Shown here: in pieces, positions 5,322-21,431 of the stretch | How positions within the stretch are numbered: the first letter of the stretch is position 1 | Layout: the number at the start of each line of letters is the position of its first letter | Assembly (NCBI GenBank): GCA_001799715.1 | Contig: MGTZ01000009.1 | Span: 17,082 to 81,081 of the forward strand | Length of the DNA: 64,000 bases | Origin: Elusimicrobia bacterium GWB2_63_16 | GTDB taxonomy: Bacteria > Elusimicrobiota > Elusimicrobia > Elusimicrobiales > UBA9959 | Direction: 5' to 3' | Notes under the pieces: generated by a model | Told to the model about the DNA's origin: nothing | The model's input: only the letters and a program-made list of their open reading frames with translations | Database searches by the model: none | Made by a program: the position numbers and the translations under genes

Positions 5322-5330
5322 CTCCTGCGG

Positions 5331-5347
5331 TGTTTCACGTGAAAACA
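5331..5347. promoter_or_regulatory. parS-like centromere site 1
   Basis: TGTTTCACGTGAAAACA: the canonical parS core TTTCACGTGAAA with one extra A in the right arm. Confidence 0.7.
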
Positions 5348-5425
5348 ATGCCCCGCTAAAAACACCATGAAGCAGGCTTCGGCCCCCAAAGTGAATGCTT
5401 TGGGGGTCTTTCCATATATTTGCTA

Positions 5426-5442
5426 TGTTTCACGTGAAAACA
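5426..5442. promoter_or_regulatory. parS-like centromere site 2
   Basis: TGTTTCACGTGAAAACA, identical to site 1. Confidence 0.7.
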
Positions 5443-5520
5443 TTTAGTGCGCCCTCTATTCCTCGGGCACGAGTGGGGGGCGGGTTGCAGAGGGGATGTC
5501 TTGCCAGGGTTATCGCCCTG

Positions 5521-5537
5521 TGTTTTCACGTGAAACG
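5521..5537. promoter_or_regulatory. parS-like centromere site 3 (opposite orientation)
   Basis: TGTTTTCACGTGAAACG, the reverse complement of the site 1/2 pattern apart from the terminal base. Confidence 0.7.
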
Positions 5538-5605
5538 TAGCGGGGGGAATTGACAGGGCACTGGCAAAACTATAGAATAAAGAAGCCCCAATATATAAGG
5601 GTGGC

Positions 5606-6481: not shown

Positions 6482-6507
6482 GGGCCCCTATATATAAGGA
6501 GAACATT

Positions 6508-7377
6508 ATGAGGAAAGCTTTAGGAAGGGGCATAGACTCCCTGATAACCAAGGTTCAGAATAACGATATTTCCGGGGACATGGTGCAGAAGATCCCGCTG
6601 GGCCGCATAAGGGCCAACCGGTACCAGCCCAGGCGCATTTTCGACGACGCTGCCCTGGCCGAGCTGGCCGAGTCCATTAAGGAACGGGGCCTGCTGCAGC
6701 CTATCTCGGTATGGAAGGATCACGGCGACGACCATTACGAGCTGATAGCCGGCGAGCGGCGCCTGCGCGCCTCCAAGCTGGCCGGCCTGGCCGAGATAGA
6801 CGCCATAGTCAAGCGTGACCTCGACGACGAGCAGAAGCTGGGCCTGTCCCTGATAGAGAATATACAGCGCGAGGACCTCAACGCCGTGGACACCGCCATG
6901 GCCTATCGGCAGCTTATGGACGCTTTCGGCGTTTCCCAGGCGGACCTGGCCAAGCGCGTGGGCAAGTCCCGCGCGGCCGTTTCCAACACGCTGCGCCTGC
7001 TGGAGCTGGACACCGACATCCGCCAGGGCATACAGTCCGGAGCCATCAGCGAGGGGCATGCCCGCGCGCTGATCTCCATCCCCGATTCCTCCAAGCGCCG
7101 GGAGTTCTACCAGCGTATCATGGCCGAGAAGCTGAGCGTGCGCGACGTGGAGAGTTTCGCCCAGGGCTTCCACGCCCAGAAGCCGCGGGCCCAGCGGACC
7201 CCCCGCGCCGGCTCGCGCCGCACGCCGGAGGCGGTGGAGCTGGAATCCACTCTTGAAAAGACGCTGGGCACCAAGGTGGAGGTCTGCCCCGGCCCCGGCC
7301 CGCAGAACGGCAGGATCGTGATACATTATTTTTCCCTGGACGATCTCGACAGGGTGACACAGATTATAAAAAAGTAA
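6508..7377 (+). CDS. parB: Chromosome partitioning protein ParB/Spo0J
   Basis: ParB box motifs (QPRR, LIAGERRLRASKLAG), an HTH (QADLAKRVGKSRAAVSNTLRLL) and a position after parA. Confidence 0.9.
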   Translation: MRKALGRGIDSLITKVQNNDISGDMVQKIPLGRIRANRYQPRRIFDDAALAELAESIKERGLLQPISVWKDHGDDHYELIAGERRLRASKLAGLAEIDAIVKRDLDDEQKLGLSLIENIQREDLNAVDTAMAYRQLMDAFGVSQADLAKRVGKSRAAVSNTLRLLELDTDIRQGIQSGAISEGHARALISIPDSSKRREFYQRIMAEKLSVRDVESFAQGFHAQKPRAQRTPRAGSRRTPEAVELESTLEKTLGTKVEVCPGPGPQNGRIVIHYFSLDDLDRVTQIIKK

Positions 7378-9480: not shown

Positions 9481-9768
9481 ATGGGTAAGATACTCGCCGT
9501 ACTGCTGATAGCCGCTTTTGTCGCGGGCTGCAAAAAGAAAGCGCCAGAGCAGATACCGCAGCCGAAGGCTGAGGCCGCCGCCGTCGCGGCGCCTGCCGCC
9601 GAACCGGCCGCCCCGGCCCCGTCGCAGAATCCTCTGACGGCCCCCGGGAATTACCTGAAGACCACCGTCGGTCAGGTGCAGAAGGCCAAGGCCGCCGCCG
9701 CGGTTTACGAGGACGCCGCCAAGAACAGGGCCGACGCGCTGGACTCTTCCAAGCTGGGAGGGGAATAA
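9481..9768 (+). CDS. Small lipoprotein, Ala/Pro-rich
   Basis: Lipobox LLIAAFVAGC followed by a low-complexity A/P region. Confidence 0.55.
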   Translation: MGKILAVLLIAAFVAGCKKKAPEQIPQPKAEAAAVAAPAAEPAAPAPSQNPLTAPGNYLKTTVGQVQKAKAAAAVYEDAAKNRADALDSSKLGGE

Positions 9769-10427
9769 TGGACCCGGTTTTTCTTCAGACCTATACCATA
9801 CCGATCGTCATCGGCGGCGTGGCGCTGGTGATATTCCTGGTCTTCTGGCTGGAGCGCAAACGCCGCAACGACCTGATGGCTCTGGCCGCCTCCATGGGCC
9901 TGCGGTTCTCTCCGGAGGGGCCCGACGTTTATTCCCTCGAGGGCACGCAGCTGGAGATGTTCCGGCTTGGCCGCTCGCGCAAGGCCGCCAATATGATAGA
10001 GGTCTCCTCCGCCGGCGGGCAGATCCGGGTTTTCGACTACCGCTACACCACCGGCTCGGGGAAACACTCGCAAACCCATAATTTTACCGTGGCGCTGATC
10101 GCCTCCGGCGGCAACGTGCCGCAGTTCGACCTGAAACCCGAGACTTTCATGTATAAGATCGGCGAGCTGGTCGGTTTTAAGGACATAGACCTGCCCGCTT
10201 TCCCGCTGTTCTCGGAGAAGTACCGCCTGACCGGCCCCGACGAGGCGGCCGTGCACCTGTTCTTCACGCCGCGCCGGGCCGCCTGGTTCGAGTCCCGCCC
10301 GGGACTGCGCGTGCAGGGCGCCGCGGGCCACGCGCTGCTCTTCAAGGAAAACCGGCGCCTGCCGGTGGACGACTGGATGACCTTCATAGAGGAGGCCAAG
10401 GCTTTCGCCTCCGAAGCGCTTAAATAA
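9768..10427 (+). CDS. Membrane-anchored hypothetical protein
   Basis: One N-terminal TM helix (IPIVIGGVALVIFLVFWL) followed by a soluble domain. The start overlaps the upstream stop (TAATG). Confidence 0.55.
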   Translation: MDPVFLQTYTIPIVIGGVALVIFLVFWLERKRRNDLMALAASMGLRFSPEGPDVYSLEGTQLEMFRLGRSRKAANMIEVSSAGGQIRVFDYRYTTGSGKHSQTHNFTVALIASGGNVPQFDLKPETFMYKIGELVGFKDIDLPAFPLFSEKYRLTGPDEAAVHLFFTPRRAAWFESRPGLRVQGAAGHALLFKENRRLPVDDWMTFIEEAKAFASEALK

Positions 10428-10449
10428 CCCCCAGCTTCCCCTCCCGCTG

Positions 10450-10480
10450 CCGCCGGCCCCGCAAGGCCGGCGGTTTTATT
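10450..10480 (+). terminator. Rho-independent terminator
   Basis: CCGCCGGCC-CCGCAA-GGCCGGCGG hairpin followed by TTTTATT. Confidence 0.7.
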
Positions 10481-10552
10481 TCGGCTCCCGTCTGCGCCGC
10501 GGACCTTGGCCGTCCGAAGAGCATGGCTCCTTACGGCACCGCGTAGGCAGGC

Positions 10553-10582
10553 TTGACAACTAGTTTAGCATCTGCTAAACTA
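10553..10582 (+). promoter_or_regulatory. Promoter with embedded perfect palindromic operator (arsR-family gene)
   Basis: TTGACA (10553-58), a 17-nt spacer and TAAACT (10576-81). The perfect 10-2-10 inverted repeat TAGTTTAGCA-TC-TGCTAAACTA (10561-10582) fills the spacer and the -10 element. Confidence 0.65.
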
Positions 10583-10588
10583 CTATAC

Positions 10589-10891
10589 ATGAACAAAGCG
10601 ATGCTGGCCAAGGCCGAGGGTATAGCGGGCATGCTCTCCTGTATCGCGCATCCCTCCCGGCTTATGATAATTTGTATGCTGTTGAAGAGGGAAATGTTCG
10701 TGCACGAGCTGATAGAGAAGCTGGGCACGACCAAGGGGAACATCTCGCAGCACCTGCGCGTCCTTGCCGACCGGGGCCTCATCCAGAAGCGCCGCGACGG
10801 CAACCGCATCTTCTATAGCATCAAAGACCCAAACCTGGCGGAGCTGATCTCCAGGATCAAGAAGCTCTATTGCCCGAATTTCGACTTTTAG
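10589..10891 (+). CDS. ArsR/SmtB-family transcriptional repressor
   Basis: The winged-HTH pattern HPSRLMIICMLLKREMFVHELIEKLGTTKGNISQHLRVLADRGLIQKRRDGNRIFY is typical of ArsR. The start is taken at ATG 10589. The TTG start in the track (10553) is the -35 box. Confidence 0.8.
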   Translation: MNKAMLAKAEGIAGMLSCIAHPSRLMIICMLLKREMFVHELIEKLGTTKGNISQHLRVLADRGLIQKRRDGNRIFYSIKDPNLAELISRIKKLYCPNFDF

Positions 10892-10907
10892 AGTTAACGG
10901 AGGAAAT

Positions 10908-11153
10908 ATGGACCTTAGCCAGATAAAACCCGCGAAAGTTGTGGATGCCCGCTCTATGGCCTGTCCCGGACCCCTGCTCGAAGCCAAGAAAGGCATAGCC
11001 GGCGTGCCGGTGGGCGGCGTGCTGGAGATACAGTCCGGCGACAAGGGCAGCCGCGAGGACATCCCCGCCTGGTGCGGCAAGTCCGGCCACGAGTACATGG
11101 GCGTGCTCGAGCGGGACGGCTACGACAGCCTCTTCGTCACCCGCAAGAAGTAA
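10908..11153 (+). CDS. tusA: TusA/SirA-family sulfur carrier protein
   Basis: 81 aa with DARSMACPGPLLEAKK (the CPxP active-site motif) in a two-layer alpha/beta-sized protein. Confidence 0.8.
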   Translation: MDLSQIKPAKVVDARSMACPGPLLEAKKGIAGVPVGGVLEIQSGDKGSREDIPAWCGKSGHEYMGVLERDGYDSLFVTRKK

Positions 11154-11167
11154 AGTTCCACAAGCGT

Positions 11168-11301
11168 GGCCCGGCCGGCAGTACGGGCCCGTCGTGCACG
11201 GGGTTGCGCACACCGTGCGCCCCCCTCCTCTCTCGGCCTCGGCGCTTACGCAAGCCTCGGCCTCCGAGAGGGCCCGCCGAACCCATACCGCCGGTCGGGC
11301 C
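11168..11301. repeat. Palindromic intergenic element, copy A
   Basis: Imperfect terminal inverted repeats GGCCCGGCCGGCAGTACGGG / CCCATACCGCCGGTCGGGCC (17/20). The internal core CACACCGTG...TCGGCGCTTACGCAAGCCTC...CTCCGAGAGG...CCGAA..CATACC is colinear with copy B at 50324-50459. Confidence 0.6.
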
Positions 11302-11330
11302 TGAAAGGCAGGCCCGCATATTTCTCGCTT

Positions 11331-11711
11331 ATGACTCATCGGAAAATATTAATTATTACGACTAATCATAGTTCTTACCCGGGGGCGGACGCGGTGGGGC
11401 AGGCCCGGATGGCGTACAGCGCCAATACCTACGTGATACGCGTGCCCGACCCGGTGATGTTCCCGGAAGATTTCTATATGAGGGCCTTCGACAAGGGCAT
11501 CGGCGGCATCATCATCATGTCCTCCGGCTCCGACTGCCCTTACGAGGGCGCTTATGAGCGGCTTTCAAAGCGCGTGGCCCGCGTTTACGAACAGATGAGA
11601 GCCAAGGGGATAGCCCCCAACCGGCTCAAGCTGACCACCATCTGCACCGTCTGCCGCGCGGCCTTCCTTAAAGAGATCTCCGAAATGGAAAAGGCGGTGG
11701 CCGCTGTATGA
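11331..11711 (+). CDS. MvhD/FlpD-like protein (hydrogenase delta-subunit family) lacking most cluster cysteines
   Basis: Aligns by eye to MvhD along its whole length (YPGADAVG, IRV, MRAFDKGIGGIII, DCPYEG, KRV). The start is taken at MTHRK (11331). The 5' extension in the track covers the palindromic element. Confidence 0.65.
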   Translation: MTHRKILIITTNHSSYPGADAVGQARMAYSANTYVIRVPDPVMFPEDFYMRAFDKGIGGIIIMSSGSDCPYEGAYERLSKRVARVYEQMRAKGIAPNRLKLTTICTVCRAAFLKEISEMEKAVAAV

Positions 11712-12997
11712 GAGAACTCGAAAAAATAGAAGTGGACACCCTCGTGGTGGGCTCCGGCATAGCCGGGCTGCAGAGCGCGCTGGACCTGGCCGACCAGGGC
11801 TTCTCGGTGGCGATAGTGGAAAAAGCGCCGAGCATCGGCGGCAAGATGATCTCGCTGAGCAAGGTGTTCCCCACCCTGGACTGCGCGAGTTGCATCACCA
11901 CCCCGCGCATGGCCTCGGTCTCGCACCATCCGCGCATCACCACCCTCACCTACAGCACCGTGGACGCCATCCGGCGCGACGGCAAGACCTTCACCGCCTC
12001 CGTCACACGCAAGCCGCGCTATATCGACGAGAAGGAATGCATCTCCTGCAAGCGCTGCGAGGAAGTGTGCCCCGTCTTCGTGCCCGACGAGTACGAGGTT
12101 GGCCTGGGCGCCAAGAAGACCATCTCCATACCTTTCACCAACGCCATACCGCAGTACCCGGTGATGCACCCCGAGCATTGCATACGCTGCGGCGCCTGCG
12201 CGCGCGCCTGCCCCAAGGACTGCATAGAGTTCCTGCAGGAGCCGGCGCCCGTGGAAATAAAGGCCAAGGCCGTAATACTCGCCACCGGCTACGAGACCAC
12301 GCCGATGACGGCCAAGAAGCAGTACGGCCTGGGGAAACTCCCCAATGTCATTTCACCGATGGCGGCCGAGCGCCTGCTGGCGCCGCACGGCCCTTACGGC
12401 CGCGTCCTGCGCCCGTCCGACGGCATGACGCCGGGTTCCATCGCCTACGTGCAGTGCGCCGGCTCCCGCGACAAGAGCATCGGCATCCCCTATTGCTCGC
12501 GCGTCTGCTGCATGTACGCCATCAAGCAGGCCATTTTGCTGTCCGGCTCGCTGCCCATAGCCGATATCACCATCTATTACATGGACATCCGCGCTTTCGG
12601 CAAGGGCTACGAGCAGTTCTACAATAACGCCCGGGCCATGGGCATCAACTTCGTGAAGGCCAAGGTGGCCCGCATCACCGAGGACGAGAAGCATAACCCC
12701 ATACTGCGCATAGAGCGCCAGGAGGGGACCTCCGGCCCCGACGAGGTGAAGCACGAGCTCGTGGTGCTGTCGCAGGGGCTGATCCCCGGCCACGACGCCT
12801 CCGCTTTCGGCCTCGGCACGGAGAACAACGACTTCGGTTTCGTGAAACTCTCCGACGAGATGGTCTCTTCGGCCGTCACCGCCGGCGCGGGCGTGTTCGC
12901 CGCCGGCGTGGTCAAGGGCCCGCGCGACATTCCCGACTCGGTGGTGGACGCCGGCTCGGCCGCCATGGAAGCCGCCAGCTATATGAGGAAACTGTGA
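11708..12997 (+). CDS. HdrA-like FAD/FeS oxidoreductase (QmoA-like, 429 aa)
   Basis: FAD motif VVGSGIAGLQSA, the HdrA signature YVQCAGSRDKSIGIPYCSRVCCMYAIKQA, and internal Cys motifs CISCKRCEEVCP and CIRCGACARACP. ATGA overlap with the upstream gene. Confidence 0.8.
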   Translation: MRELEKIEVDTLVVGSGIAGLQSALDLADQGFSVAIVEKAPSIGGKMISLSKVFPTLDCASCITTPRMASVSHHPRITTLTYSTVDAIRRDGKTFTASVTRKPRYIDEKECISCKRCEEVCPVFVPDEYEVGLGAKKTISIPFTNAIPQYPVMHPEHCIRCGACARACPKDCIEFLQEPAPVEIKAKAVILATGYETTPMTAKKQYGLGKLPNVISPMAAERLLAPHGPYGRVLRPSDGMTPGSIAYVQCAGSRDKSIGIPYCSRVCCMYAIKQAILLSGSLPIADITIYYMDIRAFGKGYEQFYNNARAMGINFVKAKVARITEDEKHNPILRIERQEGTSGPDEVKHELVVLSQGLIPGHDASAFGLGTENNDFGFVKLSDEMVSSAVTAGAGVFAAGVVKGPRDIPDSVVDAGSAAMEAASYMRKL

Positions 12998-14787
12998 TGG
13001 ATGAGAAAACACGGGACGAAGCCTCCAAGGATAATTTCCGGCAGGAGCCGAAGGTCGGGGTATATGTCTGCCATTGCGGCGGCAACATCTCCGACATCAT
13101 CGACGTGAAAGCGGTGGCCGCGGCGCTGGCCAAGTATCCCGGCGTGGCCGTGGCCCGCGAGTACGCCTTCATGTGCTCTTCCAACGGCCAGGACCTGATC
13201 ACCGAGGATATCAAGAATCTCGGCATCAACCGCACCGTGGTGGCGGCCTGCTCGCCCAGCCTGCACGAACTCACCTTCCGCAACGTGCTGCAGCGCGCGG
13301 GCGTTAACCCGTACCTGCACGAGCATATCAATATCCGCGAGCAGGCCAGCTGGGTGCACAAATTAGACAAGGCGGGCGCCACCGCCAAAGCCATCAAGCT
13401 GGCGCAGGCCGGCGTGGAGAAGGTGCTGCGCAAGGACGCGCTCAACGCCATCCGCGTGGCCGCCGAGCAGCGCGTGGCCGTGATAGGCGGCGGCGTGGCC
13501 GGCATGCGCGCGGCCCTCTCGGCCGCCGGCAAGGGCCTGGAAGCCGTCATTATAGAGAAAGCGCCGCGCCTGGGCGGCAAGCTGCTGGAGCTGGGGAAAA
13601 TATACCCTTCCGGAGAGGAGGGGGCCGCGGTGGCGAAGAAACTCGAAACCCTGGTGCTCGCCGAAAAGAAGATAACCGTGCATACCGGCGCGGACATAGA
13701 CTATGTCAGCGGCTTCGTCGGGAACTTTAAGGTCAATTTCAAGAAGCCAGACGGCTCTTCGCGGCAGGTGAAGGCCGGCGCCATAGTTATGGCCACCGGC
13801 TACGAGCATTACAAGCCCGCCCAGGGCGAGTTCGGCTACGGCGAGGACGCCAATGTGGTCACGCTGCCCGAGTTCCTGGCCCTGATGAAGAATTCCCCGG
13901 CCGGCAGGCTGGAACTGGCCGGCAGGGAAATAAAGAGCCTCGCGCTGATACACTGCGTGGGCTCGCGCCAGGTGGAAGGGGTGCATAAGCCCCAGGCCGA
14001 CGGCAAGATCAACGATTACTGCTCCCGCGTCTGCTGCTCCTCCGCTCTCTACGCCGCCAACCAGGTGAAAGAGAGATATCCCGGCGTGCGCATCTACGAC
14101 GTGTACCGCGACATCCGCACCTACGGCATGCAGCACGAGGAATACTACGACAAGGCCTCCCGGGACGGCGTGCTGTTCTTCCGCCATAACGACACCGACC
14201 AGCCCGCGGTGACCTCGGACCGCACCGGCCACACCGTCAAGGTGAAGGACGTGCTGACCTGGGGCGAGGAACTGGAGGTGAAGGCCGACCTGATAGTGCT
14301 GGTCACCGGCATGATGCCCGCCGACATCTCCTTGATCAAATCCCAGCTGAAGCTGCCGTCCAGCGCCGACCGCTTCCTGCAGGAAGTGCATTTGAAACTG
14401 CGCCCGGTGGAGCTGGCCAACTCCGGCATCTTCGTGGCCGGCACGGCCCAGTACCCGATGGACGTCACCGAGGCCATGGCCTCCGCCGGCACCGCGGCCG
14501 CCAAGGCCGCCATTTTGCTGGCCGAGCCGGACATCCCGCTGGAACCTTTCGTCGCCGTGGTGGACGAGGCCAAGTGCACCGGCTGCGGCCTGTGCCCCGC
14601 CGAGTGCTCCTACGACGGCGCCCTGATGATGGGCGAGCATAAAGGCAAAAAAGTGGCGATCGTGAACCCGGCGCTGTGCAAAGGCTGCGGCGCCTGCGTG
14701 GCGGTCTGCCCGACCCGCGCCATCAACGTGGCCGGCTGGACGCTGGACCAGTTCGACGCGATGGTAGAAGCCATCGCCAAGGAATAA
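12997..14787 (+). CDS. HdrA-type FAD/FeS oxidoreductase (QmoB-like core, no fused MvhD domain)
   Basis: Canonical HdrA N-terminus GVYVCHCGGNISDIIDV...VVAACSP...NIREQASWVH. FAD motif VIGGGVAGMRAA, signature HCVGSRQ...YCSRVCCSSALY, and a C-terminal 2x[4Fe-4S] region CTGCGLCPAECS / CKGCGACVAVCP. The ATG at 12997 overlaps the upstream TGA. Confidence 0.85.
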   Translation: MDEKTRDEASKDNFRQEPKVGVYVCHCGGNISDIIDVKAVAAALAKYPGVAVAREYAFMCSSNGQDLITEDIKNLGINRTVVAACSPSLHELTFRNVLQRAGVNPYLHEHINIREQASWVHKLDKAGATAKAIKLAQAGVEKVLRKDALNAIRVAAEQRVAVIGGGVAGMRAALSAAGKGLEAVIIEKAPRLGGKLLELGKIYPSGEEGAAVAKKLETLVLAEKKITVHTGADIDYVSGFVGNFKVNFKKPDGSSRQVKAGAIVMATGYEHYKPAQGEFGYGEDANVVTLPEFLALMKNSPAGRLELAGREIKSLALIHCVGSRQVEGVHKPQADGKINDYCSRVCCSSALYAANQVKERYPGVRIYDVYRDIRTYGMQHEEYYDKASRDGVLFFRHNDTDQPAVTSDRTGHTVKVKDVLTWGEELEVKADLIVLVTGMMPADISLIKSQLKLPSSADRFLQEVHLKLRPVELANSGIFVAGTAQYPMDVTEAMASAGTAAAKAAILLAEPDIPLEPFVAVVDEAKCTGCGLCPAECSYDGALMMGEHKGKKVAIVNPALCKGCGACVAVCPTRAINVAGWTLDQFDAMVEAIAKE

Positions 14788-14788
14788 T

Positions 14789-15082
14789 ATGGCCGACGCT
14801 AAGAAACTCGCCGAACAACTGAAGAAACTTAACGAGCTGCGCGGCCCGGTGCCGCAGGAACTGCGCGACCGTGTGGCCGCGCAGAACAAGGCGCAGCGGG
14901 CCATCCTCGACGCGCTGAAAGAGGGCCCCAAGACCGCGCCCGAGCTGGCGGCCGCCGCCGGCCTGCCCCACGACCGGGCCATCTGGTATGTGTCGGCGCT
15001 GCGCAAGTACGGCAAAATCGCCGACGTGCCCGGTAAAGGCGACTATCCCAAATACGAGCTGAAGGGAGGGGAAGCGAAATGA
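14789..15082 (+). CDS. Small soluble protein, possibly winged-helix-like
   Basis: 97-aa ORF starting 2 nt after the HdrA stop, with its own stop overlapping the next start (ATGA). ILDALKEGPKTAPELAAAAGLPHDRAIWYVSALRKYGKI resembles a wHTH. Family not recognised. Confidence 0.55.
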   Translation: MADAKKLAEQLKKLNELRGPVPQELRDRVAAQNKAQRAILDALKEGPKTAPELAAAAGLPHDRAIWYVSALRKYGKIADVPGKGDYPKYELKGGEAK

Positions 15083-16161
15083 AGGTAAACCCCGAGCTCA
15101 TAGACGAGATAAAGAAATACGGCGCTTTCGACATTTCCGCCTGTTTTAACTGCGGCAACTGCACCGCCGTCTGCCCGCTGTCAAAGGAAGACGCTTCTTT
15201 TCCGCGCAAGCTGATCCGTGCGGGCCACGTGGGCATGGAGGAGAAGATAGGCTCCGCCCTGGAGCCCTGGCATTGCTACTACTGCGGCGAATGCTCCGCC
15301 ACCTGTCCGCGCGAGGCCCAGCCCGGCGAGTACATGATGGCCCTGCGCCGCTACCTCATCGCCAAATACGACATCACCGGCCTGTCCAGGATCTTCTACA
15401 AGACCGGCTGGCTGCAGACCTGGCTGGCGCTCGGCATGCTGGGCTTCTTCTACTGGCTCTACGCCTCCTACACCGGGGACTTCGGCGCGCTGGCAGGAAA
15501 GATAGAGCTGGCCTTCCCGGTCTATGTCACCATAGCGCTGGGCGGCTACATCATAAACATGTACCGCCACGCTATCGTAAAACCGCTGGGCGGCATAAAG
15601 GCGTCGCTCAAGCCGGCGCACGTCTACGAGACCCTGGTGCACGGCTTCACGCAGAAGAACTTCAACGGCTGCGAAGAGACGGACCTGGTGCGTTGGGGAG
15701 CGCATCTGCTGGTGATGAGCGGCTATGTGCTGACGCTGCTGATCTCCAACCTGCATTTGCTGTCGCCGCTCGACAAGCATTACGGCGCTTTCCACCCGGT
15801 GAGCCTGCTGGTCTGGTACGCGGGCTTCGGCATCCTCGTCGGCGGCGGCCTGATGTCCCTGCGCCGCGTGTTCAGGAGCGCCGAATCCAGCAAGTTCTCT
15901 CACCCGAGCGACTGGCTGTTCGTGGTGACGATGTTCCTGATAGGCGCGAGCCTGCTCTTCACCCATTACCTCAACGTGGCCTATGGCCCGGGGGACCCGC
16001 TGCTCGCCAAGGTCTACCGTCTGAACATCGCCATAGAGACGGTGTGGATCATCCTCATAGTGCCGTTCACCAAATGGATACACATCTTCTTCAGGCCGCT
16101 GGCTGTCTACTTCCAGCACGTTAAAAAGGAGGCTGAGGCCGGCACGGCTTTCAGTTTGTAA
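15079..16161 (+). CDS. QmoC-like subunit: 2x[4Fe-4S] ferredoxin (HdrC-like) fused to a multi-helix membrane domain (HdrE/NarI-like)
   Basis: CFNCGNCTAVCP and CYYCGECSATCP motifs in the first 90 aa, then about six hydrophobic helices with conserved-looking His residues. Confidence 0.75.
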   Translation: MKVNPELIDEIKKYGAFDISACFNCGNCTAVCPLSKEDASFPRKLIRAGHVGMEEKIGSALEPWHCYYCGECSATCPREAQPGEYMMALRRYLIAKYDITGLSRIFYKTGWLQTWLALGMLGFFYWLYASYTGDFGALAGKIELAFPVYVTIALGGYIINMYRHAIVKPLGGIKASLKPAHVYETLVHGFTQKNFNGCEETDLVRWGAHLLVMSGYVLTLLISNLHLLSPLDKHYGAFHPVSLLVWYAGFGILVGGGLMSLRRVFRSAESSKFSHPSDWLFVVTMFLIGASLLFTHYLNVAYGPGDPLLAKVYRLNIAIETVWIILIVPFTKWIHIFFRPLAVYFQHVKKEAEAGTAFSL

Positions 16162-16529
16162 TGGACAACAACGAAAAGATAGTTTACGTGGCCACGCATT
16201 TCAAGGATTCCCCGGAGAAGGCCCTCATCCCCTTCGTACTGGCCAACGCCAGTTACGCCATGGACGTCAACCCCGTGATCATAGTGCAGGGCGAGGGAGT
16301 GAACCTGGCCGTGAAAGGCCGGGCCGCCGAGATAGTGCACGCGCCTTTCGACCCGCTGGAAAAACTTTTTAATTCCTACGCAGAGCAGGGCGGCCAGCTG
16401 CTGGTTTGCTCCCCGTGCCTTAAAGCCCGCGGCCTCGACGAGAAAGACCTGGTGCCCAACGCCAGGATAGTCGGCGCGGCAAAGGTGATAGAGGAAATAA
16501 CCTCCGCCAAGACGGTGCTGTCCTACTAA
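16161..16529 (+). CDS. DsrE/DsrF-family sulfur-relay protein
   Basis: 122 aa with the pattern IVYVATHFKDSPEKALIPFVLANA...LLVCSPCLKARG...VLSY, typical of the DsrE fold. TAATG overlap with the upstream gene. Confidence 0.7.
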   Translation: MDNNEKIVYVATHFKDSPEKALIPFVLANASYAMDVNPVIIVQGEGVNLAVKGRAAEIVHAPFDPLEKLFNSYAEQGGQLLVCSPCLKARGLDEKDLVPNARIVGAAKVIEEITSAKTVLSY

Positions 16530-16530
16530 A

Positions 16531-16863
16531 ATGAAAAAAGCCGGAATAATACGCTGTCAGCAGACCGAAGATATCTGCCCGGGGACCACGGACTTCAAGT
16601 TCGCGCAGCTGGGCAAGGGCGCTTTCGCCGAAACCGGGCCGGTGGAGATAGCCGCCTTCGTTTCCTGCGGCGGCTGCCCCGGCAAGCGGGCCGTCATCCG
16701 CGCCGAGGAGATGGTTTCCCGCGGCGTCGAGGTCATCGCCCTGGCGTCCTGCGTAAAGAACGGCAACCCGCTCTGTTTTCCCTGCCCCCACGCTGACGCG
16801 ATGAAAGAGGCGATAGTGAAGAAGGTGGGGGACAAAGTAAAGATCCTGGATTACACGCATTAA
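16531..16863 (+). CDS. CGGC-domain protein
   Basis: IIRCQQTEDICPGT...FVSCGGCPGKRA...LASCVKNGNPLCFPCPH: the Cys pattern that defines the CGGC domain. Confidence 0.7.
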   Translation: MKKAGIIRCQQTEDICPGTTDFKFAQLGKGAFAETGPVEIAAFVSCGGCPGKRAVIRAEEMVSRGVEVIALASCVKNGNPLCFPCPHADAMKEAIVKKVGDKVKILDYTH

Positions 16864-16905
16864 GGGGACATAACACCTATTTCACGAAATAGGTGTTATG
16901 TCCCC
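16864..16905 (+). other. Perfect 19-bp stem / 4-nt loop hairpin filling an intra-operon gap
   Basis: GGGGACATAACACCTATTT-CACG-AAATAGGTGTTATGTCCCC starts directly after the CGGC stop codon. No U-tract follows, and the next gene's AAGGAG lies 6 nt downstream. Confidence 0.8.
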
Positions 16906-16920
16906 GATTTAAGGAGAATT

Positions 16921-17472
16921 ATGGCTGATATCAAAGAACTGGAAGCGCAGGTGGCGGCCCTCAAGGCCGACGTGGAGGTCCTCAAGGCCAACGCCCCCGA
17001 GGACAAGCTGAGCATGGTGGTGATGAGCGGCGACATGGACAAGCTCCTGGCCTCTTTCATCATAGCTACCGGTGCGGCCGCGATGTTCGAAAAGGTCGTC
17101 ATGTTCTTCACCTTCTGGTCCATACCGGCCCTCAAGGACCCCAAGAAGACCGTCTCCAAGGATACCGTCTCCAAGATGTTCGAGCTGATGCTCCCCAACG
17201 GCGCAGCCGGGACCAAACTCAGCAAGATGAACATGGGCGGCATGGGCAAGATGATGATAGAGTCCATCATGAAGAAGCACAACGTGATGAGCCTCGAGCA
17301 GCTGATAAAGACCGCCGCCGACTCCGGCGTGCAGATCTACGTCTGCCAGATGAGCATGGACCTGATGGGGTACAAGATGGAAGAGATGATAGACTACCCC
17401 GCCATGAAGAGCGCCGGCGTGGGCAAGTTCCTCGGCGAGGCCGGCACCAGCAAGTCCACGCTGTTCATATAA
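16921..17472 (+). CDS. DsrE/DsrF/DrsH-like family protein (COG2210-type) with N-terminal coiled coil
   Basis: LSMVVMSGDMDKLLASFIIATGAAAMFEKVVMFFTFW and QIYVCQMSMDLMG match the pattern of the DrsE_2-type proteins usually found next to TusA. Confidence 0.65.
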   Translation: MADIKELEAQVAALKADVEVLKANAPEDKLSMVVMSGDMDKLLASFIIATGAAAMFEKVVMFFTFWSIPALKDPKKTVSKDTVSKMFELMLPNGAAGTKLSKMNMGGMGKMMIESIMKKHNVMSLEQLIKTAADSGVQIYVCQMSMDLMGYKMEEMIDYPAMKSAGVGKFLGEAGTSKSTLFI

Positions 17473-17496
17473 TTTCGGAAAATTAACGGAGGTTAA

Positions 17497-18693
17497 ATGA
17501 AAAAAGTAAAACTGTTAGCTGCGGTTTTCTCTCTGGCCGTTCTGGCCTCTAACGTTCACGCCACCAACGGCGACAACCTCATCGGCGTGGGGCCCACCTC
17601 GCGCGCGATGGGCGGTACGGGCATAGCCGCCCCGCAGGACGCCATCAGCGCCATCTTCTCCAATCCGGCCGCGCTCTCGCAGCTGCAGGGCTCGCAGTTC
17701 AACTTCGCCGGCACCTACTTCTCTCCCGAGGTTAAAGCCACGGTCGTCTCTCCGGCGCCGGCTTTCGGCGTGGGCAACTGGAGCGGCAAGAGCCAGGACG
17801 CGGCTTACGCCGTGCCGGCCATCGGCCTCTCCACCCCGGTCAATGACAAGATGACCTTCGGTATAGCCGCCTACGGCGTGTCCGGCATGGGCGTGGACTA
17901 CCGCAATAAGGACGTGAACGGCTCCATGAACACCAAGGTGTCCGTGATGAAGTTCGTGCCGGCCCTGTCCTACAAATACGGCGCTTTCTCCTACGGCGCC
18001 GGCCTCGACATAGACTACCAGGCCGCCGACTTCGGCAAGGGTCTGTCGCATAACTACGCTCTCGGCCTGCGCCTCGGCGCCGGCTACGAGTACGGCAAGT
18101 GGAACTTCGGCCTTACCTACGTCACCCCGCAGAACGTCGAGCATGAGCGCGTCTACGACTTCGACATGGACAGCGACTTTGACGACCTGAAGCTGGAGAA
18201 CCCCGCCCAGTACGGCGTGGGCGCCTCCTATAAGGGCCTTGACAGGTGGGTGCTTTCCGCCGACGTGAAGTACGTGGACTGGGCCAACGCCGACGGTTAC
18301 AAGGACTTCGACTGGGAGAGCCAGACCGTATTCGGCCTGGGCGTACAGAACAAGACCACCGACAAGCTGACGTTGCGCGCCGGCTGGAACTACGGCAAGA
18401 ACCCGCTGAAAAAGCACGATTCTTTCAACGCCGCCGGCAACACCGTGGTGCAGGGATCCACGATGAACAACTTCAACTACGAGTACTTCCGCGTCATCGG
18501 TTTCCCCGGCATCGTGGAGCACCACATGACGCTGGGCGCGGGTTACGAGTTCTCGCCCAAGTTCGCCCTGAATGTGGGTTACAAAAAGGCTTTTGCCAAG
18601 AGCATCCGCGAAGTTAGCAGCAACGGGATGTATGACATAAAGTCCGAGCTCTCCGAGGACGCCTACGACATCGGCCTCACCTTCAAGTTCTAA
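17497..18693 (+). CDS. Outer-membrane channel of the FadL/TodX (OmpP1) family
   Basis: Signal peptide, then the family N-terminus NGDNLIGVGPTSRAMGGTGIAAPQDAISAIFSNPAAL. Alternating beta-strand pattern with C-terminal ...YDIGLTFKF. Confidence 0.8.
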   Translation: MKKVKLLAAVFSLAVLASNVHATNGDNLIGVGPTSRAMGGTGIAAPQDAISAIFSNPAALSQLQGSQFNFAGTYFSPEVKATVVSPAPAFGVGNWSGKSQDAAYAVPAIGLSTPVNDKMTFGIAAYGVSGMGVDYRNKDVNGSMNTKVSVMKFVPALSYKYGAFSYGAGLDIDYQAADFGKGLSHNYALGLRLGAGYEYGKWNFGLTYVTPQNVEHERVYDFDMDSDFDDLKLENPAQYGVGASYKGLDRWVLSADVKYVDWANADGYKDFDWESQTVFGLGVQNKTTDKLTLRAGWNYGKNPLKKHDSFNAAGNTVVQGSTMNNFNYEYFRVIGFPGIVEHHMTLGAGYEFSPKFALNVGYKKAFAKSIREVSSNGMYDIKSELSEDAYDIGLTFKF

Positions 18694-18710
18694 CAAGAGC
18701 CTGAACAAAG

Positions 18711-18738
18711 AAAGGGCCCCGCGATCGCGGGGCCCTTT
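18711..18738. terminator. Bidirectional GC-rich terminator hairpin between convergent genes
   Basis: Perfect 28-nt palindrome AAAGGGCCCCGCGATCGCGGGGCCCTTT. Confidence 0.7.
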
Positions 18739-18757
18739 CGCTTTATGCGGCCGGCCG

Positions 18758-19108
18758 CTACCCTATCGCTTCGCGGATCTTGGACAGGAGTTCGTGCAGC
18801 AGGAACGGCTTTTCGAAGCAGGCCGCCAGGCCGTAGCGCAGGGCCAGGGCTTCCAGCTCGTCCCGCTGCACTGATCCGGTGATCAGTATGGTCTTTATGC
18901 CGCGCGCTGCCTCCATTACCGCCGCGCCGGTGCCGTCCCCCAGTTGAAAATCGGTGATCACGAGGTCGTAAGAGCCGCTCGCGAGCAGGGCGCAACCATC
19001 CGCCGCGCCTTCGGCTAGGGTGAGGTGGTAGCCCTCTCCGCCCAGCACCTTGGCGTAGAGTCGCCGCACCTGACTGTCGTCCTCGACTACGAGTATGGTT
19101 TTGCCCAT
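18758..19108 (-). CDS. Stand-alone response-regulator receiver domain (CheY-like)
   Basis: ILVVEDD..., phospho-acceptor context DLVITDFQLGDG and KPF near the C-terminus, 116 aa. Confidence 0.8.
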   Translation of the reverse strand: MGKTILVVEDDSQVRRLYAKVLGGEGYHLTLAEGAADGCALLASGSYDLVITDFQLGDGTGAAVMEAARGIKTILITGSVQRDELEALALRYGLAACFEKPFLLHELLSKIREAIG

Positions 19109-19234
19109 ATGTCCTCCCGCTGTAGGTGCAGACGCGCGGCCTGTCGGAAAGGTTTAGCCGCTTTCTTAATATAATGACCTCTGGGACTAAACCATACGAG
19201 ACCGACAGGCGTCAGTATTGATGTGGAAAACTTA

Positions 19235-19810
19235 ATGGAGAACGTTAAAAAGACCGGGCCGGAAGGCCTTGCCGGGACGGACCCGGAAAGCGCCTTTGCC
19301 CTGCTCATAGAAGAGCAGCAGCGGCTGGTCTACTCCGTGGCCCTCCGGCTTACCGGCAATACGGCGGCGGCCGAGGACATTACCCAGGAGACTTTCATAG
19401 CCGCCTGGCGGCACATTAAGGATTTCCGCGGCGAAAGTTCTTTGAAGACCTGGCTGATGCGGATAGCGGCCAACAAGACCCGCTCCTACTGGCGCTGGAA
19501 GCGGCTGCGCTCCTGGGTGGGGCTCTCGGACAAGGGCGAGGATGGTGAGGGGGCGGCCCTCGAGGACCTGCTGCCGGACGATCCCGCCGGCCGCCCGGAG
19601 CAGGCGGCGCTGGCGGCCGAACTGGAGCGCCGGGTGCAGTCCGCCATAAACGCTCTGCCTCCCCGCCAGCGTGAAGTGGCCGTGCTGAGGGCGCAGGGGC
19701 TGGGCCTGGCGGAGATAGGCGCCGCGCTGGGCATGGCTGAGGGCACAGTGAAAGCCCACTGGTTCGAGGCCAGGAAGAAGCTGGGGGCCTCGCTGGGGGA
19801 ATATTTATGA
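19235..19810 (+). CDS. ECF-type RNA polymerase sigma factor (sigma-70 family, group 4)
   Basis: Region 2 (LVYSVALRLTGNTAAAEDITQETFIAAW...) and region 4 (LPPRQREVAVLRAQGLGLAEIGAALGMAEGTVKAH). ATG at 19235, with an upstream in-frame GTG at 19223. Confidence 0.85.
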   Translation: MENVKKTGPEGLAGTDPESAFALLIEEQQRLVYSVALRLTGNTAAAEDITQETFIAAWRHIKDFRGESSLKTWLMRIAANKTRSYWRWKRLRSWVGLSDKGEDGEGAALEDLLPDDPAGRPEQAALAAELERRVQSAINALPPRQREVAVLRAQGLGLAEIGAALGMAEGTVKAHWFEARKKLGASLGEYL

Positions 19811-20106
19811 ACGAAGAGAAAGAGAGCAAGCTTGTTTCGCTGCTGGCGGCGCGCCGCAGCGAAGCCTTCTGGCGCCGCCAGAAGGCGGGCATTCTGCGGG
19901 CCGCCGTAGAAGAGCGCGGACCGCGCCGGGCCTGGCTGCTGGCCCCGGCCGCGGCGCTGGCCGCCCTGCTGGTGCTGGTACTGGTCCGCAATCCCAGCCA
20001 GCCCGTCCTGGACGAGCCGCAGGCCGTTAGCGCGGCTTTCATCGAGCACCTGGACCTGCTGGACGACATGGACGTGCTGGAAGCCGTACCGGAGGAAGAA
20101 TTATGA
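19807..20106 (+). CDS. Putative anti-sigma factor (single-pass membrane protein)
   Basis: ATGA overlap with the sigma gene, a central TM helix (AWLLAPAAALAALLVLVLV) and an acidic C-terminus. Confidence 0.55.
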   Translation: MNEEKESKLVSLLAARRSEAFWRRQKAGILRAAVEERGPRRAWLLAPAAALAALLVLVLVRNPSQPVLDEPQAVSAAFIEHLDLLDDMDVLEAVPEEEL

Positions 20107-20384
20107 AAAAGCGGTTTTTAAGTTTCTGGCTGGGCCTGGCGCTCACGGCCGCGGCTATGGCCGCGGCGGTAAGCGCGCCGGCCGAAGTCCTGGATAACCT
20201 GGATTTCTTCAGCGATTTTGACCTGTTGTACAACCTGGAACTGATAGAAAGCACGGAACTGGAGAGCGGCACGGTGGCCGTTTCCACGGCGCCGGCCGTC
20301 TCAACGGCCGCGGCCGTTGTCCTGTTCTCCACCGGAACCGTAACGGCGTCCACCGCCGCCTGGGGGTCTTATGAAAAGCGTTAA
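20103..20384 (+). CDS. Small exported protein
   Basis: Signal peptide MKKRFLSFWLGLALTAAAMAAA. ATGA overlap with the upstream gene. Confidence 0.5.
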   Translation: MKKRFLSFWLGLALTAAAMAAAVSAPAEVLDNLDFFSDFDLLYNLELIESTELESGTVAVSTAPAVSTAAAVVLFSTGTVTASTAAWGSYEKR

Positions 20385-20793
20385 TTTGCTGCTGCTGGGA
20401 CTGATCCTGGTTACGGCGCCGGCCGCAATGGGAGAGGATGCGCGGCAGGCCGACAAGCGGGCCGCCTGGGAAAAGCTGCCCGAGGCCGAAAAAAAGCGCG
20501 TACTGGCCAACTACGAGAAGTGGAAGGGCATGGAAGAGGGTAAGAAAGAAGAAATAAAGGAAAAGTTCGCCCGCTTCCGCGCCATGCCCAAGGAGAAGCA
20601 GGCCGAACTCAGGGCCCGCTGGGCCCGCTTCCAGGCTATGCCGCAGGCGGATCAGAAAAAACTGATGAACAAATTCGGCAAATGGAAAAAACTGTCAAAG
20701 GAACGCCGCGAGGAACTGCGCAAGGAATACCGGCGTGATAAATCAATAGAGCGACGCAACGGGCACGGCGGCGCAGGCCGGAATCGCCGTTGA
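20371..20793 (+). CDS. Exported Lys/Glu-rich protein with repeated W/F-x-x-M/L-P-x-x-x-K motifs (DUF3106-like)
   Basis: Signal peptide, then the repeats AWEKLPEAEKKR / FRAMPKEKQAELRARWARFQAMPQADQKK. The family call is tentative. Confidence 0.55.
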   Translation: MKSVNLLLLGLILVTAPAAMGEDARQADKRAAWEKLPEAEKKRVLANYEKWKGMEEGKKEEIKEKFARFRAMPKEKQAELRARWARFQAMPQADQKKLMNKFGKWKKLSKERREELRKEYRRDKSIERRNGHGGAGRNRR

Positions 20794-20867
20794 CCGGGCT
20801 AAACCCTTTTCCGGCCAGCGGAGTCAGTACATAAGAGGCGGAGCGCCGCCCCTGACAAGGAGGAGTT

Positions 20868-21431
20868 ATGAAAACCAAAATAATGATAGTAGCCGCCCTC
20901 GGTCTGGTTTCCGTTTTTTTGTCGACGGCCGCCGTAAAAGCCGAGGACGCGGTCAAGGAGCAGGATAAACTGCAGACGCAGGACAAACTGCAGATCCGGG
21001 ACCGGGAGAAGGTCCAGGACAAACTGCAGACCGGGGAGAAGCTGCAGATAAAAGAGCAGCTCCGCCTCAAGGACGGCGAAGGCGCCGGCGAAGAGAAGAA
21101 GACCGGCCTGGACCGGGCCGACGAGGCTGCCGGAGACCATGGCCTCCAGGGCCGCGAGAAGGCCCGCGAGATGCAGGGCGCGGACAAAGCCAAGGGCGAC
21201 ACCGTCAGGGAGATGGCGGAGAACGCCGGCGAAGAGAAGGCCCTGAAGAACCAGGAGAAAGCCGGCGCGAACGGCGAGAAGGCGCTGAAAAAGCAGGAGC
21301 GCAAGCAGGAGAAGAAAGAGGTTAAGGAGCAGCGCAAGGAGCAACGGGAGGACCGCAAAGAAATGAGGTCCGAGAAGCGCCAGAGCCGCGGCGGCAACGG
21401 CGGCAATGGCGGCGGCAAGCGCGGCCGTTAA
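20868..21431 (+). CDS. Exported low-complexity Lys/Glu/Gln-rich protein with QDKLQ repeats
   Basis: Signal peptide MKTKIMIVAALGLVSVFLSTAAVKA. The 15-mer CAGGA(C/T)AAACTGCAG occurs at 20961, 20979 and 21015. Gly/Asn/Arg tail. Confidence 0.55.
   Translation: MKTKIMIVAALGLVSVFLSTAAVKAEDAVKEQDKLQTQDKLQIRDREKVQDKLQTGEKLQIKEQLRLKDGEGAGEEKKTGLDRADEAAGDHGLQGREKAREMQGADKAKGDTVREMAENAGEEKALKNQEKAGANGEKALKKQERKQEKKEVKEQRKEQREDRKEMRSEKRQSRGGNGGNGGGKRGR

Follow-up and report, generated by a model that had tools for sequence, protein, structure and literature searches.

A predicted quinone-linked Hdr-type cassette beside sulfur carriers and a FadL-type channel in Elusimicrobia: a candidate route for zero-valent sulfur

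Three kinds of described redox systems are related to the genes considered here. The quinone-interacting membrane-bound oxidoreductase QmoABC, present in sulfate reducers, where it serves adenosine 5'-phosphosulfate (APS) reductase, and in green sulfur bacteria, contains two HdrA-related flavoproteins together with QmoC, a subunit in which an HdrC-like domain with two [4Fe-4S] clusters is fused to a HdrE/NarI-like haem b domain. The electron-bifurcating MvhD-HdrABC complex of methanogens (PDB 5ODC and 8RVU) holds full HdrA cofactor motifs, an MvhD partner and HdrC clusters. In the sHdr-LbpA systems of Hyphomicrobium, Aquifex and Acidithiobacillus (PMC11094781), the genes for an Hdr-type complex accompany those for TusA and DsrE-family sulfur carriers and, in some organisms, are controlled by an ArsR-type repressor that responds to sulfane sulfur. 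The locus described here shares features with each of them and is found in a stretch of 64,000 nucleotides (the window) from the uncultured groundwater organism Elusimicrobia bacterium GWB2_63_16 (assembly GCA_001799715.1, contig MGTZ01000009.1, positions 17,082 to 81,081). It consists of eleven co-directional genes encoding an ArsR-family repressor, TusA, a split Hdr/Qmo-like redox module, two DsrE-family proteins, a CGGC-domain protein and a FadL-type outer-membrane channel. We read this operon, with a probability of roughly 0.5, as a persulfide-induced, quinone-linked and possibly ferredoxin-confurcating system for the processing of carrier-bound zero-valent sulfur, which would work in the reductive direction. 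An earlier interpretation of the same DNA made from its letters (the sequence-only reading) had proposed a quinone-linked handling of persulfide or polysulfide sulfur, a proposal consistent with all the evidence presented below.

The redox core is encoded by five consecutive genes, whose coordinates are collected in Table 1. The sequence-only reading had recognized in them a Qmo-like module of two HdrA-type flavoproteins, a free-standing MvhD-like protein and a QmoC-like fusion, and all of these matched the corresponding profiles, with the QmoC-like protein scoring below the cut-off of the NCBIfam qmoC family (128.7 bits versus 300). HdrA1 comprises a flavin adenine dinucleotide (FAD) domain and an inserted 2x[4Fe-4S] ferredoxin domain, and lacks the N- and C-terminal domains of HdrA, whereas HdrA2 holds the N-terminal HdrA domain, the FAD domain and a C-terminal 2x[4Fe-4S] domain, but neither the inserted ferredoxin domain nor an MvhD domain. 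In fact, HdrA2 corresponds to the HdrA of 8RVU (403 bits) minus its inserted ferredoxin domain. Both polypeptides carry the CxGSR...CSRVCC signature, and jointly they present the complete cofactor motifs of a methanogen-type HdrA: the N-terminal cluster, FAD, the CxGSR...CSRVCC cluster, and the inserted and C-terminal 2x[4Fe-4S] domains. Because their domain losses are complementary, HdrA1 and HdrA2 would be expected to act as an obligate heterodimer. Their Fe-S cysteines are invariant in 40 related loci with the same gene cassette (see below), with the exception of HdrA2 C531 (62%); C172 of HdrA1, which is not a ligand, is found in 47%. Two of the invariant Fe-S cysteines (C59 in HdrA1, C28 in HdrA2) do not occur in classical QmoA and QmoB, and can be considered as signatures of this system.

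The QmoC-like subunit keeps eight Fe-S cysteines, C198 and four histidines (H188, H209, H275 and H335) located in or beside the predicted helices, and these cysteines and histidines are invariant in classical QmoC as well. Its N-terminal domain matches HdrC (E value of 2.6e-11), and the histidines are consistent with the binding of two haems b; no QmoC structure is present in the PDB. The putative complex looks like an MvhD-HdrA-HdrC-HdrE assembly, that is, an Hdr in which HdrB has been replaced by a membrane anchor with haem b, and therefore the predicted high-potential partner is a quinone and not a heterodisulfide. The MvhD-like protein holds three cysteines (C69, C105 and C108), with D40 and A74 at positions where most homologues, which hold five, have C40 and C74. 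Other cysteines have been lost in the versions of this protein found in Anaerolineales. Matches of the MvhD query to pentatricopeptide proteins were discarded as repeat-summation artefacts.

The fifth gene of the core encodes a 97-residue protein, w97. Its AlphaFold2 model, built on a shallow alignment of 32 sequences, is a winged helix of four helices and two strands (predicted local distance difference test of 84), and its closest Foldseek matches are proteins of the ArsR/SmtB type, among them Mb0332, NolR, SqrR and CzrA (E values of about 1e-4, template-modelling scores of about 0.55). This protein is a signature of the cassette without a counterpart in classical Qmo, and it may act as a further regulator or as a structural part of the complex. 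The possibility that w97 is a DsrC/TusE-like carrier was discarded, as it lacks cysteines and adopts an ArsR-like winged-helix fold in the model.

The distribution of these genes was studied in the best 80 loci of each scan (one genome per species for the scan with the QmoC alignment), in which genes were labelled by tblastn with the window proteins plus a few Pfam checks. The order TusA-MvhD-HdrA1-HdrA2-w97-QmoC (the cassette) appeared in 53 of the 80 best loci of the QmoC scan, and w97 was labelled in 42 of those 53, always between HdrA2 and QmoC. Carriers, many of them metagenome-assembled genomes (MAGs), belong to Bacteroidales and other Bacteroidota (among them the isolate Ancylomarina longa, L011), Anaerolineales and Chloroflexota, Desulfobacterales, Krumholzibacteriia, a spirochaete of the family Rectinemataceae and Elusimicrobiota, and in all of these lineages the invariant core includes TusA. 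Among the recurrent open reading frame (ORF) clusters of the 53 loci, annotation identified as neighbours DsrE2 (23 loci), DsrE (18), Crp/Fnr (14), LysR (8), ArsR (6) and sigma-54 response regulators (6), together with YeeE/YedE sulfur transporters and rhodaneses (5 each). Regular partnership with apr, sat or dsr genes, as expected of an ordinary Qmo, was not observed, as none of them, and no gene for a CCG-domain or lipoate-binding protein, is among these recurrent neighbours.

The core of the cassette remains constant and the sulfur entry module varies by lineage. In Anaerolineales, DsrE and YeeE/YedE genes are added downstream, while in Bacteroidales rhodaneses and DsrE2 are added upstream. 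Among the elusimicrobial relatives, the loci L081/L082 present DsrE-DsrE2-FadL downstream in the same parAB-asd context as the window; L083/L084 and L004 present DsrE2-DsrE-FadL in other chromosomal contexts; and L085/L086 hold DsrE2 alone. The co-occurrence of the QmoC-like gene with FadL, DsrE and CGGC genes, which the sequence-only reading had suggested looking for, is observed for DsrE and, in Elusimicrobia, for FadL, but CGGC genes are met near the cassette only sporadically in other phyla (L007, L046 and L058). The CGGC gene is absent from L081-L086, including L081/L082, the closest syntenic relatives, and is a lineage-specific insertion, which within Elusimicrobia occurs in the window's own lineage only. 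A third arrangement, HdrA1-QmoC-HdrA2-MvhD, without TusA and the winged-helix gene, was also found in L009, L019, L051, L053, L057 and L064, whose hosts are MAGs of Bacteroidales and a MAG labelled Patescibacteria, and in a Methanoperedens locus (L018) tandem QmoC-like genes lie beside several HdrA genes.

The QmoC architecture and the pair of HdrA-type flavoproteins are also what an ordinary QmoABC would show, and such a complex could serve an APS reductase encoded elsewhere in the genome. This explanation is very improbable. True Qmo loci of sulfate reducers (e.g., Desulfacinum, L059) exhibit only 27-37% identity and lack TusA, w97 and a separate MvhD gene; in them, MvhD is fused to the C-terminus of QmoB (737-772 residues). 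Moreover, HdrA1 of the window keeps both clusters of the inserted domain, one of which is missing from most classical QmoA proteins (C158, C161 and C164 are present in 25%). In a QmoC tree, of which only the grouping of eight to nine true sulfate-reducer proteins was used because the "classical" label was otherwise mixed with truncated cassette loci of Bacteroidales, the sulfate-reducer QmoCs group together and apart from the cassette QmoCs. In addition, apr and sat are neither in the window nor recurrent around the cassette in its 53 loci, the carriers are mostly not sulfate reducers, and L047 has genes for a classical-type Qmo apart from the cassette, as do L089/L090, which do not belong to the cassette loci. 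Classical Qmo identity was accordingly rejected on four membership features, including the qmoC cut-off, the fused MvhD and the apr/sat linkage.

Pfam scans of about 60 ORFs in the 64-kb window revealed no CCG-domain protein (PF02754), Apr, Sat, DsrAB/DsrC or lipoate-binding protein, as the sequence-only reading had stated in concluding that the cluster is neither a classical Qmo-AprAB nor an sHdr system; both parts of that conclusion are supported. Contrary to sHdr-LbpA, the window lacks sHdrB1/B2 (the CCG subunits), the sHdrC pair, LbpA and the genes for lipoate assembly, and holds a quinone anchor and an MvhD module that sHdr does not possess. Identity with sHdr was thus discarded from the lack of a CCG subunit and of LbpA and lipoate-assembly genes among the window ORFs. 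In the full-text literature, with subscription-only sources outside the scope of the search, no functional description was found of the TusA-MvhD-HdrA1-HdrA2-w97-QmoC cassette, or of the HdrDE-FadL cluster described below.

The three sulfur carriers that had been proposed, TusA with its CPGP motif and two DsrE-family proteins, are confirmed by profiles and by the conservation across cassette loci of the cysteines in the ACPGP, LVCSPC and YVCQMS motifs. The DsrE2-type protein is below the cut-off of the NCBIfam DsrE2 equivalog (54 bits versus 210). A match to TsoR in NCBIfam (36 bits) led nowhere as an identification, and matches of the DsrE query to BurrH proteins were discarded as repeat-summation artefacts.

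The first gene of the operon encodes an ArsR-family repressor (HTH_5, 51 bits; NCBIfam metalloregulator, 86 bits) whose closest solved homologues are SqrR from Rhodobacter capsulatus (PDB 6O8L, E value of 3e-16), YgaV from Escherichia coli (3CUO) and BigR from Xylella (3PQJ). Besides the fold, both sensing cysteines of SqrR (C41 and C107) are aligned in the window protein by phmmer and MAFFT, and the pair is kept in three other elusimicrobial orthologues (L081, L083 and L085). Differences from these regulators are a third cysteine, kept within Elusimicrobia, and the nature of the operon, which contains Hdr/Qmo-like genes and not SQR, PDO or Blh genes. Since its score (78.3 bits) does not reach the cut-off of the NCBIfam BigR equivalog (155 bits), the repressor is assigned as a member of this family and not as a BigR orthologue. 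Between the -35 and -10 boxes of the predicted promoter lies a perfect palindrome, TAGTTTAGCATCTGCTAAACTA, which is predicted to be the operator of this repressor and which, as in SqrR, BigR and YgaV, would overlap the promoter of its own operon. It occurs once in the window, with 0.02 matches expected by chance, and the same palindrome precedes the orthologous regulator gene in L081/L082 and L083/L084, the latter in a different chromosomal context. The view of the operon as ArsR-gated is consequently well founded. As for the signal, which had been proposed to be either a thiol/persulfide or a metalloid, the closest homologues, the aligned cysteines and the palindrome in the promoter favour the former, and nothing was found pointing to arsenite or metal sensing, so that the repressor likely responds to sulfane sulfur rather than to a metalloid. 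ArsR-type regulators are also encoded 5' of the cassette in Anaerolineales (L031, L036, L043, L044, L046 and L067, at about 5130-5550). In these proteins the alpha-2 cysteine of SqrR is replaced by Trp, and most of them have cysteines elsewhere in the protein, pointing to a thiol switch that arose independently.

Repressors that sense persulfide are a usual feature of regulons for reactive-sulfur stress, and TusA is a known biosynthetic sulfur hub. These two facts would also fit a role in homeostasis or assimilation, in which sulfane sulfur is stripped from thiols, or elemental sulfur or thiosulfate is fed to the biosynthesis of cysteine, Fe-S clusters and thio-cofactors, with the complex supplying only reductant and having no energetic role. 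The YeeE/YedE thiosulfate importers and rhodaneses found near the cassette elsewhere, and the CGGC protein and metal/Fe-S assembly island near the operon in the window, point in the same direction. Nevertheless, a five-subunit membrane complex with haem, multiple clusters and a bifurcation-type HdrA would be a costly way of obtaining housekeeping reductant, and, for detoxification alone, bringing in more sulfur through FadL would defeat the purpose. We regard this explanation as rather unlikely.

The last gene of the operon encodes a FadL/TodX-type channel with an N-terminal signal-like helix, the NPA motif of the hatch (SNPAAL) and a C-terminal Phe (...LTFKF). It is identical (100%) to a protein of Elusimicrobia bacterium GWA2_64_40, and it is kept together with the cassette in three separate elusimicrobial contexts (window/L081, L083 and L004). 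To see its neighbours outside these contexts, seven FadL homologues with 48-52% identity were examined by locus. Two of them (L089 and L090) lie in the gene string MarR-DsrE2-TusA-NarI-like cytochrome b-Fer4/CCG (HdrD-like)-FadL, one in DsrE2-TusA-FadL (L091) and another in MarR-DsrE2-FadL (L093), while L087, L088 and L092 lack sulfur genes nearby. Metagenomes were then scanned with an alignment of FadL proteins headed by P0225, and of the 80 best loci 65 were informative in that they had enough flanking DNA. In 52 of these 65 (80%), which come from other lineages, the FadL gene adjoins DsrE2/TusA: 37 have an HdrDE-like module directly upstream, most of them also with DsrE2 and TusA, 14 have DsrE2 and/or TusA only, and one shows a Qmo-like arrangement. 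The remaining 13 have none of these sulfur or redox neighbours. The FadL proteins of the scan are 46-88% identical to P0225 and, outside Elusimicrobia, about 40-57% identical to that of the window, and the linkage still holds at about 40%. These data connect this FadL subfamily, at the level of gene linkage, with DsrE2/TusA and with a quinone-linked Hdr-type redox module, which in most lineages of the subfamily contains a CCG catalytic subunit that the window version lacks. The suggestion that the channel admits a hydrophobic sulfur species is strengthened by this linkage outside its own lineage, which is evidence of neighbourhood. In Chlorobaculum tepidum, the FadL homologue CT2230 has been hypothesised to move hydrophobic sulfur chains (bioRxiv 10.1101/172254).

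The nearest solved relatives of the channel are, however, the aromatic-hydrocarbon channels TbuX, TodX and CymD, with which it shares the Toluene_X barrel, the N-terminal hatch and the NPA motif, and its link to sulfur is one of gene neighbourhood only. It could then be argued that the operon carries out no direct sulfur chemistry: MvhD-HdrA1A2-QmoC would be a general oxidoreductase between ferredoxin (or another donor) and menaquinone, TusA and the DsrE proteins would maintain cofactors or clusters, and FadL would import an ordinary hydrophobic organic substrate. The 13 informative FadL loci without sulfur neighbours, likewise L087, L088 and L092, and the fact that a catalytic sulfur site is not identifiable agree with this possibility, which we nonetheless consider improbable. 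TusA belongs to the core in every lineage, each recurrent accessory gene that is not a regulator encodes a sulfur carrier or importer, the repressor belongs to the persulfide-sensing type, and four fifths of the informative FadL loci adjoin DsrE2/TusA.

The operon MarR-DsrE2-TusA-NarI-like cytochrome b-Fer4/CCG (HdrD/DsrK-like)-FadL is widespread. It is represented by the 37 loci mentioned above, including L089 (3156-9655), L090, L098, L100-L103, L106, L113 and L114. Like the window, it brings together in one gene string the FadL subfamily, DsrE2, TusA and a quinone-linked Hdr-type module, but the latter is a two-subunit HdrDE/DsrMK-like enzyme with a CCG domain, the regulator is of the MarR type and the hatch of FadL holds cysteines. 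Frequent neighbours of these clusters are a rhodanese-lactamase B gene, sat and a classical qmoCBA, and this operon could bear on the first step of sulfur disproportionation or oxidation. The hatch cysteines form a pair within the motif AAMCFGxYCPGSE (around residues 60-70) in the DsrE2/TusA-linked FadLs outside Elusimicrobia (alignment A3, with P0225, P0235, P0219, P0220, P0224 and P0240), and the pair is missing from FadLs without sulfur neighbours and from the cysteine-free FadL of the window.

In the pathway that we propose, the SqrR/BigR-like repressor would sit on the palindrome in its own promoter when reactive sulfur is absent, as suggested by homology and by the position of the operator, and sulfane sulfur would cross-link its two cysteines, releasing it from the DNA, as in its homologues. 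The FadL-type channel would let hydrophobic sulfur, most plausibly S8 or organic polysulfanes, cross the outer membrane, a step proposed because of the chemistry of the family and the recurrent linkage of FadL with DsrE2/TusA. DsrE2 and DsrE would then catch the sulfur as a cysteine persulfide and pass it to TusA, as the conserved active-site cysteines and the established biochemistry of the TusA/DsrE relay indicate. The membrane complex presumably formed by the MvhD-like protein, the HdrA1/HdrA2 heterodimer, w97 and QmoC would tie the menaquinone pool, through the haem b and the HdrC-like clusters of QmoC, to the HdrA-type flavin/Fe-S machinery. Finally, the carrier-bound sulfane sulfur would be reduced to H2S by menaquinol, probably with reduced ferredoxin as a second donor through flavin-based confurcation, and sulfur would serve as electron sink and sulfur source in fermentative or facultative anaerobes. 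This reductive direction is preferred because most carriers are fermenters, because an importer whose substrate also induces the operon agrees with use of that substrate, and because no enzyme for further oxidation is encoded. The occurrence of comparable Hdr and TusA clusters in sulfide-tolerant fermenters (PMC11129491, PMC8542988) fits the proposed pathway ecologically. The standard potential (E0') of the S0/HS- couple is about -270 mV, that of menaquinone about -75 mV and that of ferredoxin about -450 mV. As the first lies near the mean of the other two, both a confurcating reduction and a bifurcating oxidation would be feasible.

The second of these options corresponds to the opposite direction, in which electrons from sulfide or from carrier-bound sulfane sulfur would pass to menaquinone, possibly with part of them bifurcated to ferredoxin, FadL would release or exchange S8, and the operon would be a detoxification or energy module with an outcome like that of SQR or sHdr. 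Electron flow to menaquinone is thermodynamically downhill, and SqrR-type regulators classically control sulfide-oxidation genes. Similar clusters of Hdr and TusA genes have been mentioned in sulfide-tolerant fermenters and guessed to act in sulfur oxidation or sulfide detoxification (PMC8542988, PMC11129491), and the genes accompanying the HdrDE-type FadL clusters give these an oxidising or disproportionating appearance. On the other hand, the window has no enzyme that would take the oxidation of sulfane sulfur further (HdrB, LbpA, Sox, Dsr and PDO are all missing), most carriers ferment and show no obvious terminal acceptors, and the product itself would be the toxic inducer. We therefore view oxidation as unlikely, and keep the reductive processing of carrier-bound sulfur as the preferred reading.

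Several points weigh against that preference. The most serious is that no catalyst for the S-S chemistry can be named, because the operon encodes no HdrB/CCG subunit; none of its genes encodes a subunit with a known disulfide- or persulfide-reducing site, be it the CCG domain of HdrB/HdrD or a cysteine of the CoA-persulfide-reductase type. Menaquinol alone is too weak a reductant for S0, and the ferredoxin branch is assumed. The missing cysteines of the MvhD-like protein make its [2Fe-2S] cluster, and hence the electron path, uncertain. S8 could just as well exit through a passive FadL, in agreement with the oxidative direction. In addition, the linkage counts are biased to close relatives of the queries, since they come from the best 80 loci of each scan and from tblastn labels. 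Lastly, one spirochaete isolate, which may or may not carry the cassette, did not use elemental sulfur as electron acceptor (PMC11129491).

Regarding the architecture of the locus, profile searches assigned all eleven genes to the families named in the sequence-only reading, and its single operon of eleven same-strand genes stands, with all ORFs present and with a promoter and two terminators found. The unit spans about 10553-18739 on the plus strand and is bounded by two predicted terminators (10449-18739 when the upstream hairpin is included). Junctions are tight: adjoining genes share four bases at 11708, 12994 and 15079 and one base at 16161, and are one base apart at 14788 and 16530. Two of the starts listed earlier had to be moved: the TTG at 10553, given for the repressor, is the -35 box of the predicted promoter, and either downstream ATG is likelier, while for the MvhD-like protein, listed from 11166, the ATG at 11331 is most likely, yielding 126 residues (127-128 in relatives). 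The spacer between tusA and mvhD measures 86 nt in L081, 50 nt in L083 and 1 nt in L085, and its sequence is not kept. Because Rfam gave no match anywhere in the window, it does not correspond to any known riboswitch; it could represent an attenuator or the remnant of an insertion.

Table 1. Features of the operon and its boundaries (positions in the window; bits are profile scores).
Feature	Position	Strand	Characteristics
Terminator-like hairpin	10449..10474	+	10-pair stem, 9 G-C pairs, T-rich tail; closes upstream gene 9768-10427; 5' boundary of the unit
Predicted promoter, sigma-70-like	10553..10581	+	TTGACA, 17-nt spacer, TAAACT with TG extension; 10/12 matches, best site in 10300-19300
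Candidate operator	10561..10582	.	Perfect 10-2-10 palindrome (22 bp), TAGTTTAGCA-tc-TGCTAAACTA; between -35 and -10 boxes
ArsR-family repressor, SqrR/BigR/YgaV-like	10589..10891	+	Start ATG 10589 or 10601 (96-100 aa); relatives 96-102 aa
TusA sulfur carrier	10908..11153	+	Pfam TusA 64 bits; active-site cysteine in ACPGP
tusA-mvhD spacer	11154..11330	+	GC-rich, 177 nt; terminator-like hairpin 11296-11316
MvhD/FlpD-like protein, free-standing	11331..11711	+	126 aa; FlpD/MvhD 67 bits; three cysteines only
HdrA1 flavoprotein	11708..12997	+	429 aa; NCBIfam HdrA2 449 bits; aligned to profile positions 137-561
HdrA2 flavoprotein	12994..14787	+	597 aa; NCBIfam HdrA2 486 bits
w97 winged-helix protein, ArsR/SmtB-like	14789..15082	+	97 aa; no cysteine; translationally coupled
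QmoC-like subunit	15079..16161	+	360 aa; two CxxCxxCxxxCP motifs and about six hydrophobic/transmembrane helices
DsrE-family sulfurtransferase	16161..16529	+	Pfam DsrE 56 bits; cysteine in LVCSPC
CGGC-domain protein	16531..16863	+	97 bits; 7 Cys, 2 His
DsrE2-type (DrsE_2) carrier	16921..17472	+	Pfam DrsE_2 155 bits; cysteine in YVCQMS; PDB 3PNX E value 7e-27
FadL/TodX-type outer-membrane channel	17497..18693	+	Toluene_X 100.2 bits versus cut-off 29.7; no cysteine
Palindromic bidirectional terminator	18710..18739	.	13-pair stem, 10 G-C pairs; between fadL and convergent response-regulator gene (18758-19108, minus)

Other genes of the window were also annotated. The parA-parB pair lies just upstream of the operon (5645-7377), and therefore the locus is probably near the replication origin. 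On the 3' side (19223-21431) there are an extracytoplasmic function (ECF) sigma factor, small ORFs, one of them for a DUF3106 protein, and repetitive ORFs rich in lysine and glutamate. Further downstream, positions 23299-46685 constitute a metal-homeostasis/Fe-S island in which each of two NikR_C genes precedes a TonB-dependent receptor, together with Fur, ZIP, ZnuA, an ABC ATPase, two Nitro_FeMo-Co-domain ORFs, a CbiA+Fer4 ATPase, a radical SAM gene, a NUBPL/ParA ATPase and a DUF2117 ("archaeal") protein. In other phyla (L046, L054, L058, L068 and L076), genes of the Nitro_FeMo-Co and CbiA-Fer4 kinds are again met near the cassette. A third DsrE-family ORF (28101-28421, 106 residues) shares a 4-base overlap with an ORF of the 4HBT thioesterase family (27670-28104) and is followed by a Fur gene.

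The passage of insoluble, hydrophobic elemental sulfur across the outer membrane and its first activation have long been problems in the study of how sulfur is reduced, oxidised or disproportionated. Testable candidates for both are provided by the present locus and related ones, in the DsrE2/TusA-tied FadL subfamily and in two alternative quinone-linked Hdr-type modules, and the related genomes suggest a widespread and as yet uncharacterised route for elemental-type sulfur in anaerobes. The cassette also constitutes a natural experiment in Hdr evolution, with an HdrA machinery that lacks HdrB and is predicted to be anchored to a quinone. A more far-reaching proposal, which we advance only tentatively and regard as doubtful, is that it represents a new respiratory/bifurcating class, in which the split HdrA/MvhD/QmoC complex couples the ferredoxin and menaquinone pools to zero-valent sulfur borne by TusA/DsrE, and a FadL subfamily feeds it as the first outer-membrane channel dedicated to elemental sulfur. 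If this were true, sulfur would be an electron sink or source for many Bacteroidota, Chloroflexota, Spirochaetota and Elusimicrobiota of sulfidic habitats that are considered purely fermentative. The core cassette is found in abundant fermenters of sediment and groundwater that are not counted among sulfur-cycling organisms and, if it is active in them, the marker sets based on dsr, apr, sox, sqr and psr would miss part of the cryptic sulfur cycle.

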